Shown in pieces: positions 9,468 through 35,129 of a DNA stretch of 64,000 nt. The notes beneath the pieces are model-generated. The model was not told the origin of the DNA, searched no databases, and saw only the letters and a list, made by a program, of their open reading frames with translations. The translations under genes were made by a program, and so were the position numbers. The first letter of the stretch is position 1. Every line of letters begins with the position of its first letter. The DNA is taken from assembly GCF_003334405.1 (NCBI RefSeq), contig NZ_QOWM01000004.1; one strand, given 5' to 3'. Source of the DNA: Escherichia coli (GTDB taxonomy: Bacteria > Pseudomonadota > Gammaproteobacteria > Enterobacterales > Enterobacteriaceae).

Positions 9468-10583
9468 ATGAAAAAGCGGAAAACCGTGAAGAAGCGTTAC
9501 GTTATTGCGCTGGTGATAGTCATCGCCGGACTGATTACGTTATGGAGAATTCTTAACGCACCCGTGCCGACTTATCAGACGCTGATTGTGCGCCCCGGTG
9601 ATTTACAGCAAAGCGTGCTGGCGACCGGAAAGCTGGACGCGCTGCGTAAGGTTGATGTGGGCGCGCAGGTCAGCGGTCAGTTGAAAACTCTGTCGGTGGC
9701 GATTGGCGATAAAGTAAAAAAAGACCAGCTTTTAGGGGTTATTGATCCTGAACAGGCTGAAAACCAGATTAAGGAGGTCGAAGCAACGCTGATGGAGCTA
9801 CGTGCGCAGCGGCAGCAGGCGGAAGCGGAGCTGAAACTGGCGCGGGTGACGTATTCCCGTCAGCAACGTCTGGCACAAACGAAGGCTGTTTCACAGCAGG
9901 ATCTCGACACCGCCGCGACGGAGATGGCTGTGAAACAGGCGCAAATTGGCACCATTGACGCGCAAATCAAGCGCAATCAGGCTTCTCTCGATACGGCTAA
10001 AACCAATCTCGATTACACTCGCATCGTTGCCCCGATGGCCGGGGAAGTCACGCAAATCACCACTCTGCAAGGCCAGACGGTGATTGCCGCACAACAAGCA
10101 CCGAACATTCTGACGCTGGCAGATATGAGCACCATGCTGGTAAAAGCGCAGGTTTCTGAAGCGGATGTAATCCACCTGAAGCCGGGGCAAAAAGCCTGGT
10201 TTACGGTGCTTGGCGATCCACTGACGCGCTACGAGGGGCAAATCAAGGATGTACTACCGACGCCGGAAAAGGTTAACGACGCTATTTTCTATTACGCCCG
10301 TTTTGAAGTCCCCAACCCCAATGGTTTGCTGCGGCTGGATATGACTGCGCAAGTGCATATTCAGCTCACCGATGTGAAAAATGTGCTGACGATCCCTCTG
10401 TCGGCGTTAGGCGATCCGGTTGGCGATAATCGTTATAAAGTCAAATTGTTGCGTAATGGTGAAACACGCGAGCGTGAAGTGACGATTGGCGCACGTAACG
10501 ATACCGATGTTGAGATTGTCAAAGGGCTTGAAGCGGGCGATGAAGTGGTGATTGGTGAGGCCAAACCAGGAGCTGCACAATGA
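9468..10583 (+). CDS. macA: Macrolide efflux periplasmic adaptor (membrane fusion protein)
   Basis: ORF 9441..10583 starts at an upstream TTG; trimmed to ATG at 9468 ([18 protein letters not shown]); coiled-coil region; stop overlaps the macB start (ATGA at 10580-10583). Confidence 0.9.
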
Positions 10584-12823: not shown

Positions 12824-13145
12824 GCTTCGACATCCTTCGCAAATCTTATACAAGTAAGATGGAATAAACCGGGGTCAGAGAGGGGGCTGTTCAAAACCTC
12901 GCCAACTCTAGAAATACAATTTAGAGAATTAGGGCGAGCCGTCAAGCATTTGACAGGGGACAAGGGGCAGGTATGAATCAAAAATTTGAAGCAGTTAACG
13001 CTATTGACAGGAATGTGACAGATGTCGCTGATGCCAACGATAGATGATAGTTATCTATCATGTGGAGTAGATTGGTCAGGCAAATAAGCTCTTGTCAGCG
13101 GCAGGGCGTTCTGCCGATAACCGTAACCGAAGATGATAACTGACA

Positions 13146-13466
13146 ATGGGTAAAACGAACGACTGGCTGGACTTTGATCAACTGGCGGAAGAAAAAGTTC
13201 GCGACGCGCTAAAACCGCCATCTATGTATAAAGTGATATTAGTCAATGATGATTACACTCCGATGGAGTTTGTTATTGACGTGTTACAAAAATTCTTTTC
13301 TTATGATGTAGAACGTGCAACGCAATTGATGCTCGCTGTTCACTACCAGGGGAAGGCCATTTGCGGAGTCTTTACCGCCGAGGTTGCAGAAACCAAAGTG
13401 GCGATGGTGAACAAGTACGCGAGGGAGAATGAGCATCCATTGCTGTGTACGCTAGAAAAAGCCTGA
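13146..13466 (+). CDS. clpS: ClpAP adaptor for N-end-rule substrates
   Basis: 106-aa [21 protein letters not shown]; immediately upstream of clpA. Confidence 0.93.
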
Positions 13467-13496
13467 ATGCAGGCATAAAAATTGGGGGAGGTGCCT

Positions 13497-15773
13497 ATGC
13501 TCAATCAAGAACTGGAACTCAGTTTAAATATGGCTTTCGCCAGAGCGCGCGAGCACCGTCATGAGTTTATGACCGTCGAGCACTTGTTACTGGCGCTGCT
13601 CAGTAACCCATCTGCCCGGGAGGCGCTGGAAGCGTGTTCTGTGGATTTGGTTGCGCTCCGTCAGGAACTGGAAGCCTTTATTGAACAAACCACACCCGTT
13701 CTGCCTGCCAGTGAAGAGGAGCGCGACACACAGCCGACGCTGAGTTTTCAGCGTGTACTGCAACGTGCGGTCTTCCATGTCCAGTCCTCCGGTCGCAATG
13801 AGGTTACCGGTGCAAACGTTCTGGTCGCTATCTTTAGCGAACAGGAGTCGCAGGCGGCATATCTGTTGCGTAAACATGAAGTCAGCCGTCTCGATGTGGT
13901 GAACTTTATCTCTCATGGCACGCGTAAAGACGAGCCGACACAGTCTTCTGATCCTGGCAGCCAGCCAAACAGCGAAGAACAAGCTGGTGGGGAGGAACGT
14001 ATGGAGAATTTCACGACGAACCTGAATCAGCTTGCGCGCGTGGGCGGAATCGACCCACTGATTGGTCGTGAGAAGGAGCTGGAGCGTGCTATTCAGGTTC
14101 TCTGCCGTCGCCGTAAAAACAACCCGCTGCTGGTGGGGGAATCTGGTGTCGGTAAAACCGCGATTGCGGAAGGTCTTGCCTGGCGAATTGTTCAGGGCGA
14201 TGTGCCGGAAGTGATGGCTGACTGTACGATTTACTCTCTCGATATCGGTTCTCTGTTAGCGGGCACAAAATATCGCGGCGACTTTGAAAAACGTTTTAAA
14301 GCGTTGCTCAAGCAGCTGGAGCAGGACACTAACAGCATCCTGTTTATTGATGAGATCCACACCATTATCGGTGCGGGTGCAGCGTCTGGTGGTCAGGTCG
14401 ATGCGGCTAACCTAATCAAACCGTTGCTCTCCAGCGGTAAAATTCGTGTAATTGGTTCGACAACCTATCAGGAGTTCAGCAACATTTTCGAGAAAGACCG
14501 TGCTCTGGCGCGTCGCTTCCAGAAAATTGATATTACTGAACCGTCGATCGAAGAAACTGTTCAAATCATCAATGGCCTGAAACCGAAGTATGAAGCGCAC
14601 CACGACGTGCGTTATACCGCAAAAGCGGTGCGTGCGGCGGTAGAGCTGGCGGTGAAATACATTAACGATCGTCATCTGCCGGATAAAGCCATTGATGTTA
14701 TCGACGAAGCGGGCGCTCGCGCACGCCTGATGCCGGTAAGCAAACGCAAGAAAACCGTTAATGTGGCGGATATTGAGTCCGTGGTGGCCCGTATTGCACG
14801 CATTCCAGAGAAGAGTGTTTCTCAGAGTGATCGTGATACCCTGAAAAACCTCGGCGATCGCTTGAAAATGCTGGTCTTCGGTCAGGATAAAGCCATTGAG
14901 GCGCTGACTGAAGCCATTAAGATGGCGCGTGCAGGTTTAGGTCACGAACATAAACCGGTTGGTTCGTTCCTGTTTGCCGGCCCTACCGGGGTCGGGAAAA
15001 CAGAGGTGACGGTACAGCTTTCGAAAGCTTTGGGCATTGAGCTTCTGCGCTTTGATATGTCCGAGTATATGGAACGCCATACCGTCAGCCGTCTTATTGG
15101 TGCGCCTCCGGGATACGTTGGTTTTGATCAGGGCGGTTTGCTGACTGATGCGGTCATCAAGCATCCACATGCGGTGCTGCTGCTGGACGAAATCGAGAAA
15201 GCGCACCCGGACGTGTTCAATATTCTGTTGCAGGTGATGGATAACGGTACGCTGACCGATAACAACGGACGCAAAGCAGACTTCCGTAACGTGGTGCTGG
15301 TGATGACCACCAACGCCGGGGTACGGGAAACTGAGCGCAAATCCATTGGTCTTATCCACCAGGATAACAGCACCGATGCGATGGAAGAGATCAAGAAGAT
15401 CTTTACACCGGAATTCCGTAACCGTCTCGACAACATTATCTGGTTTGATCATCTGTCAACCGACGTGATCCATCAGGTGGTGGATAAATTCATCGTCGAG
15501 TTGCAGGTTCAGCTGGATCAGAAAGGTGTTTCTCTGGAAGTGAGCCAGGAAGCGCGTAACTGGCTGGCCGAGAAAGGTTACGACCGGGCAATGGGCGCTC
15601 GTCCGATGGCGCGTGTCATCCAGGACAACCTGAAAAAACCGCTCGCCAACGAACTGCTGTTTGGTTCGCTGGTGGACGGCGGTCAGGTCACCGTCGCGCT
15701 GGATAAAGAGAAAAATGAGCTGACTTACGGATTCCAGAGTGCACAAAAGCACAAGGCGGAAGCAGCGCATTAA
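13497..15773 (+). CDS. clpA: ATP-dependent Clp protease ATPase/unfoldase subunit ClpA
   Basis: ORF 13482..15773 trimmed to ATG at 13497 ([14 protein letters not shown]) with a GGGGGAGGTG Shine-Dalgarno; two AAA+ modules with Walker A GESGVGKT and GPTGVGKT. Confidence 0.93.
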
Positions 15774-34265: not shown

Positions 34266-35129
34266 ATGGGAAGTGGATGGCATGAATGGCCGCTGATGAT
34301 CTTCACGGTCTTCGGGCAATGTGTAGCAGGTGGTTTTATCGTTCTGGCTTTGGCGCTGCTCAAAGGCGACCTGCGAGCAGAAGCCCAGCAGCGTGTTATC
34401 GCCTGCATGTTTGGTTTATGGGTGCTGATGGGCATTGGCTTTATCGCCTCTATGCTCCATCTTGGTTCACCAATGCGCGCTTTTAACTCGCTCAACCGGG
34501 TAGGGGCTTCAGCACTCAGTAACGAAATCGCCAGCGGTTCGATCTTTTTTGCCGTAGGCGGCATCGGCTGGTTGCTGGCAATGCTGAAAAAGCTGTCACC
34601 GGCATTGCGTACGCTGTGGCTGATAGTGACGATGGTTCTTGGCGTCATCTTTGTCTGGATGATGGTGCGTGTGTATAACAGCATTGATACCGTTCCGACC
34701 TGGTACAGCATCTGGACGCCGATGGGCTTCTTCCTGACGATGTTTATGGGCGGCCCGTTACTGGGTTACCTGTTGTTGAGTCTGGCTGGCGTCGATGGCT
34801 GGGCGATGCGTCTGCTGCCAGCAATTTCTGTACTGGCACTGGTAGTGAGTGGCGTGGTGTCAGTGATGCAGGGCGCAGAGCTGGCGACTATTCATAGTTC
34901 TGTGCAGCAGGCCGCAGCGCTGGTGCCGGACTATGGTGCGCTGATGTCCTGGCGGATCGTGCTTTTGGCCGTTGCCCTGTGCTTGTGGATTGCACCACAG
35001 CTAAAAGGTTATCAGCCTGCGGTTCCGCTACTTTCTGTATCATTCATTCTGCTTCTGGCAGGGGAATTAATCGGTCGCGGCGTATTCTATGGTTTGCATA
35101 TGACCGTGGGGATGGCCGTCGCAAGCTAA
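34266..35129 (+). CDS. dmsC: DMSO reductase membrane anchor subunit
   Basis: ORF 34203..35129 trimmed to ATG at 34266 (MGSGWHEWPLMIFTVFGQ); polytopic hydrophobic protein. Confidence 0.9.
   Translation: MGSGWHEWPLMIFTVFGQCVAGGFIVLALALLKGDLRAEAQQRVIACMFGLWVLMGIGFIASMLHLGSPMRAFNSLNRVGASALSNEIASGSIFFAVGGIGWLLAMLKKLSPALRTLWLIVTMVLGVIFVWMMVRVYNSIDTVPTWYSIWTPMGFFLTMFMGGPLLGYLLLSLAGVDGWAMRLLPAISVLALVVSGVVSVMQGAELATIHSSVQQAAALVPDYGALMSWRIVLLAVALCLWIAPQLKGYQPAVPLLSVSFILLLAGELIGRGVFYGLHMTVGMAVAS

Follow-up and report, generated by a model that had tools for sequence, protein, structure and literature searches.

The 64,000-nucleotide stretch of Escherichia coli DNA analysed here (the window) carries the clpS-clpA locus on its plus strand, with clpS at positions 13146-13466 (window coordinates, following the MG1655 annotation) and the clpA coding sequence, which comprises 758 codons plus a stop and is annotated in MG1655 records, at 13497-15773. 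Over 2701 bases, this clpS-clpA stretch is 100% identical to that of the K-12 strain MG1655, and it was found, annotated as clpS and clpA, in 5425 of 5426 complete E. coli genomes. Five clpA matches fall on plasmid-typed records, and a few E. coli genomes carry two copies. In the leader upstream of clpS-clpA, yljB, a small protein gene of 24 codons (12973-13047), is annotated between cspD and clpS.

Full-length ClpA has a computed mass of 84.2 kDa and includes the Pfam domains Clp_N, AAA, AAA_lid_9, AAA_2, and ClpB_D2-small. The protein begins with MLNQELEL at the annotated ATG (13497), which is led by the Shine-Dalgarno (SD) sequence GGGGGAGG (13484-13491, plus strand) and the 5-nt spacer TGCCT, and with a pairing energy of -12.6 kcal/mol this SD comes top among the 20 annotated starts. 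An in-frame TTG is also present at 13482, five codons 5' of the annotated ATG, and the open reading frame listing begins there; this TTG overlaps the SD of the real clpA start, the annotated start being elsewhere (ATG 13497).

An in-frame start site at the N-domain boundary

Inside clpA, positions 13987-14003 read GGTGGGGAGGAACGTATG and hold the parts of a second start. These are the internal SD GGGGAGGAA (13989-13997, plus strand), with its GGAGG core at 13991-13995, a 5-nt spacer between core and start codon (AACGT, 13996-14000), and the initiation codon ATG at 14001-14003. By frame arithmetic (13497 + 168 × 3 = 14001), as well as by translation, this ATG is Met169 of the clpA frame, just as a sequence-only reading of the same DNA had claimed. 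That reading had also reported a strong SD-like run at about 13990-13998, and here the strength of the run stands, while its actual position is one base further to the left. In the protein, the internal SD is spelled by the codons for Gly165 (GGG), Glu166 (GAG), and Glu167 (GAA). The layout of GGGG(G)AGG, 5-nt spacer, and ATG is common to the main (13484-13499) and internal (13989-14003) starts of clpA.

With regard to the domain architecture, residue 169 falls between two Pfam domains, with Clp_N before it and the first AAA module after it. N-domain constructs in the PDB stop at residues 142, 143, or 146, a D1-D2 construct spans residues 169-746, and one ClpA chain in 6uqe/6uqo starts exactly at residue 169. 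Going by these construct ends, the flexible linker between the N-domain and D1 takes up codons 143-168 (13923-14000, plus strand), with the internal SD in its 3' end. The nested open reading frame for the short form, ClpA65, then runs from 14001 to 15773 on the plus strand and encodes residues 169-758 (590 amino acids, computed mass 65.4 kDa), including the D1 and D2 AAA+ modules. The internal start thus sits at the boundary of the N-domain linker and D1, so that the N-domain and linker are removed cleanly and both AAA+ rings are kept. Consistent with the earlier suggestion of a shorter ClpA without the N-domain, residue 169 is the first residue past the linker.

We scored each ATG by the duplex energy of positions -20 to -4 with the anti-SD of the 16S tail, ACCUCCUUA. 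At -11.4 kcal/mol, the codon-169 ATG ranks fourth among the 1168 plus-strand ATGs in the window, and the three that outrank it are all annotated starts (dmsC at 34266, clpA at 13497, and ycaI at 54553); the main and internal starts of clpA are two of the four strongest plus-strand SD-ATG pairs in these 64 kb. The codon-169 SD also comes first of the 178 internal in-frame ATGs in the 20 annotated genes, and outscores 19 of the 20 true starts. Moreover, among the 3072 synonymous encodings of the peptide QAGGEER, weighted by local codon usage, the actual one belongs to the top 3.5% for SD pairing. Across 81 clpA orthologues, an in-frame NTG with an SD at or below -9.5 kcal/mol has a frequency of 5.6e-4 per codon, which amounts by chance to about 0.4 such motifs per gene overall and about 0.02 in the 37-codon linker. 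With about 0.4 per gene arising by chance, sequence alone is no proof of use, and on that basis the SD motif is a reasonable candidate, its use being proven by the experimental literature.

The window holds a further motif of this kind in macA, where the in-frame ATG of codon 109 (window position 9792) follows a perfect AGGAGG at a distance of 14 nt (-10.5 kcal/mol). At this distance a start would not be efficient, and the macA motif is probably due to chance.

Published initiation at Met169 and its mRNA context

As cited in later work, internal initiation at Met169, giving a 65-kDa ClpA, is the subject of two papers (Seol 1994; J Biol Chem 269:29468; pmid 7961929; and Seol 1995; FEBS Lett 377:41; pmid 8543014). 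According to their titles, ClpA65 is an inhibitor of protease Ti (ClpAP) and prevents the autodegradation of ClpA. The start described by Seol and the one in the window share gene, organism, codon (Met169), and mass; we see no difference between them and treat them as the same object. Structural groups, citing Seol 1994, have since made ClpA(M169T) a routine expression construct, in which the substitution 'helps overexpression' of ClpA and is used to suppress the internal start (PMC8666677, PMC11570520), and M169 accordingly matters to anyone expressing ClpA.

More direct support comes from E. coli N-terminomics (PMC13245402, Table S1), where clpA is listed with an alternative ATG start, an N-terminal peptide covering residues 169-181, a proteoform of 590 amino acids, and an inferred start at NC_000913:923768-923770, and where the Ribo-RET evidence column of the clpA row reads 'Ribo-RET (Stringer extra)'. 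In our alignment, window position 13972 corresponds to NC_000913 position 923739, and window position 14001 hence to 923768, so that the published peptide starts at the same nucleotides. Initiation mapping at codon 169, which the sequence-only reading had put forward as a check, is therefore positive in this published table, and its proposed match to the reported internal initiation of E. coli clpA is upheld by the K-12 identity, Met169, and the published coordinates. The site is almost certainly the already described internal translation start of clpA, in the literature since 1994, and not a new one. Despite the published evidence, NC_000913.3 carries no separate coding sequence for ClpA65. 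A point against the site is that, in one Salmonella Ribo-RET study, clpA is absent from the supplementary files examined and from the listed conserved proteoform pairs.

Alternatively, a short ClpA could be made from a transcript of its own, begun at a promoter within clpA, and not by ribosomes that enter the full-length mRNA internally. We consider this highly unlikely, as a scan of the plus strand between 12800 and 16000 for sigma-70-like promoters, which leaves weak or non-sigma-70 promoters outside its reach, found none; besides, such a transcript would still use the identical SD and AUG, and the finding would stand.

It could also be supposed that the chief effect of the SD-like run is on elongation, in that ribosomes pause there once the N-domain and linker are out and so help the domains to fold one by one, and that initiation at AUG169 is incidental. 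A pausing effect of SD-like sequences within genes has been suggested in general, and the motif does lie exactly at a domain boundary, but the SD-pausing idea has largely been ascribed to profiling artefacts, and 74 of the 81 orthologues lack such a motif at this boundary. Together with the initiator-Met peptide and the Ribo-RET signal, which show initiation at AUG169 (PMC13245402), these points make a pause site a very improbable explanation.

The predicted folding of the mRNA does not single out the internal start. Here, the predicted opening cost at the internal site is 16.1 kcal/mol, against a clpA mean of 13.8 kcal/mol (rank 527 of 710) and 8.1 kcal/mol at the main start, and mRNA openness, at first a candidate line of support, was dropped, since a site less open than the gene average counts against. 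A minimum free energy hairpin at 13980-14034 encloses the internal SD, although its z-score of -1.5 is not significant, and compensatory changes are seen in none of its 18 pairs among seven species (covariation term +0.31); a conserved RNA structure at the internal start was rejected on the z-score and the lack of covariation. Since ribosomes elongating through this translated stretch compete with initiation at the site, its use is probably modest.

Phylogenetic range and constraint

A full-length ClpA protein search returned only matches of at least 96% identity, and Met169 is found in 120 of 120 of these close homologues, while a 160-residue query gave only fragments without taxonomy. For a wider view, 80 ClpA loci of Gammaproteobacteria and Betaproteobacteria were taken from a genome scan, and 81 orthologues were compared. 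In the Met169 column, ATG is found in seven of them, namely E. coli, Citrobacter, two Enterobacter, Superficieibacter, Yersinia, and Acerihabitans, the Enterobacterales families beyond these being thinly sampled. Each of the seven ATGs is accompanied by an SD, with energies between -9.8 and -11.4 kcal/mol. The column otherwise holds Leu (67 orthologues), Ile or Thr (six), and TTG-Leu-type codons (one), with Leu (rarely Ile or Thr) in Photorhabdus, Vibrio, Aeromonas, Shewanella, Pseudomonas, Legionella, Xanthomonas, and the Betaproteobacteria. Of the six patterns behind the scan, one included GEERMENF; since this could only have favoured sequences with Met, the restriction is no search artefact. 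Given this distribution, Leu is the ancestral residue at position 169, and the ClpA65 start is a derived trait that belongs to some of the Enterobacterales and not to ClpA generally.

The ClpA linker is highly variable among the 81 orthologues, and an in-frame NTG with an SD at or below -7 kcal/mol occurs in it in seven, all of them Enterobacterales; in the 74 orthologues without Met169, we found no convergent linker start at this threshold. Met169 without an SD is present in three further lineages (-1.0, -4.0, and -1.7 kcal/mol), one of them an Arsenophonus endosymbiont, and Enterovibrio ClpA has Gly-Gly-Glu together with Leu, so the two components of the start do occur separately. In Shewanella and Glaciecola ClpA, a Met with only a weak SD occupies column 168, one codon upstream of the Met169 column (SMLSQF/Y). 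In the Arsenophonus endosymbiont of Bemisia tabaci, clpA is called as fragments of 44, 219, and 140 amino acids and clpS as 46 amino acids, which looks like pseudogenisation.

Such a pattern could arise if initiation is real and yet non-adaptive, with the Gly-Gly-Glu-Glu codons of the linker spelling an SD by chance, a tolerated Leu-to-Met change supplying the AUG, and ClpA65 being noise. We hold this account to be rather unlikely, with evidence on both sides. In its favour are the ancestral state of Leu, with Met plus SD in just seven orthologues, the Met169 lineages that lack an SD, the independence of the pieces as seen in Enterovibrio, the chance rate of about 0.4 such motifs per gene, and the predicted inaccessibility of the internal site. 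Synonymous conservation is likewise ordinary at the window level, where codons 163-168 are unexceptional overall, 30% of windows being equally conserved at the nucleotide level among seven enteric sequences. Against it, Gly165 is encoded by the rare GGG in every one of the seven Enterobacterales, with Escherichia, Yersinia, and Acerihabitans among them, while of 46 invariant Gly positions only three keep a single codon; moreover, the SD reaches -9.8 kcal/mol or below in seven of seven, the choice of codons is near the maximum for SD pairing, and effects of ClpA65 on ClpAP are named in published titles.

Variation within E. coli also speaks against noise. The 47-nt site at 13972-14018 is identical in 5416 of 5425 E. 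coli genomes, in comparison to 51, 1625, 986, and 4214 variant genomes for four clpA control windows of equal size, which makes it the least polymorphic of the five, a suggestive rather than formal comparison given five windows only and a BLAST end-trimming common to all. A divergent E. coli allele, with 10 differences in 104 nt, retains GGTGGGGAGGA...ATG.

Proposed role of ClpA65 and likeness to ClpB80

In the mechanism that we propose, the 30S subunit would bind the SD GGGGAGGAA inside the coding sequence directly on the clpA mRNA through pairing with the 3' tail of 16S rRNA, for which five Watson-Crick and two G-U pairs are possible, and AUG 14001, 5 nt 3' of the SD, would be set in the P site, so that translation in the clpA frame begins with fMet at codon 169. 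The product, ClpA65 (169-758), would contain both AAA+ rings and the C-terminal part without the N-domain (1-142) and the linker. As the N-domain of ClpA is the docking site of ClpS, ClpA65 should be unable to bind ClpS, and mixed hexamers should offer fewer docking sites. Co-assembly of ClpA65 with full-length ClpA might in this way lower the number of N-domains per hexamer and dampen both ClpS-dependent and autodegradative activity. A ClpA form without the ClpS-binding domain could tilt the balance between N-degron and other ClpAP substrates.

The closest known parallel is ClpB80, which starts at an internal GTG (Val149) of E. coli clpB, a paralogous class-I Hsp100/Clp ATPase, and which likewise lacks the N-domain and keeps both AAA+ modules. 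In both ClpB80 and ClpA65, the in-frame start is within the linker past the N-domain. The SD of ClpB80, GGAGGTGA (clpB codons 144-149), is similarly Gly-Gly-Glu-encoded, and the clpB sequence CGT GGA GGT GAA AGC GTG gives an SD of -10.6 kcal/mol. A Gly-Gly-Glu-encoded SD in an acidic, glycine-rich linker is thus a possible convergent way to build an SD. The two starts differ in codon and spacing, being GTG with a 7-nt spacer in ClpB80 and ATG with a 5-nt spacer in ClpA65. In the pairwise alignment, which is uncertain in the linker, ClpB V149 falls opposite ClpA G154, and ClpA M169 opposite ClpB L161; the conserved Leu position occupied by the ClpA Met comes 12 residues after the ClpB start, and the two starts are not positionally homologous. 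While the internal start of ClpB has been reported as widely conserved (PMC6168691), that of ClpA is confined to part of the Enterobacterales (7 of 81 orthologues). In NC_000913.3, ClpB80 is annotated as a coding sequence of its own, unlike ClpA65. The modestly new points of this analysis are this narrow phylogenetic range of the ClpA65 start and the parallel with ClpB.

Turning back to the origin of the start, we put forward, as a tentative reading, that it may have arisen recently in the core Enterobacterales (Enterobacteriaceae, Yersinia, and Acerihabitans) and been retained by selection, put together from two pieces and convergent with the ClpB80 start, and that it may serve to tune the number of ClpS-docking N-domains per hexamer by lineage. 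The two pieces could be the Met-for-Leu change at the first residue of D1 and the Gly-Gly-Glu-encoded SD. A start limited to part of the Enterobacterales, and seemingly built from separate elements, makes a tractable case for telling selected from accidental internal starts.

Other bacterial proteins identified by Ribo-RET and N-terminomics, including infB (IF2-beta), mrcB, speA, and yebG, also have SD-led internal starts, with the truncated proteoform co-expressed with the full-length protein. In ClpA65, unlike in those proteins, the truncation drops the adaptor-docking domain of a hexameric unfoldase.
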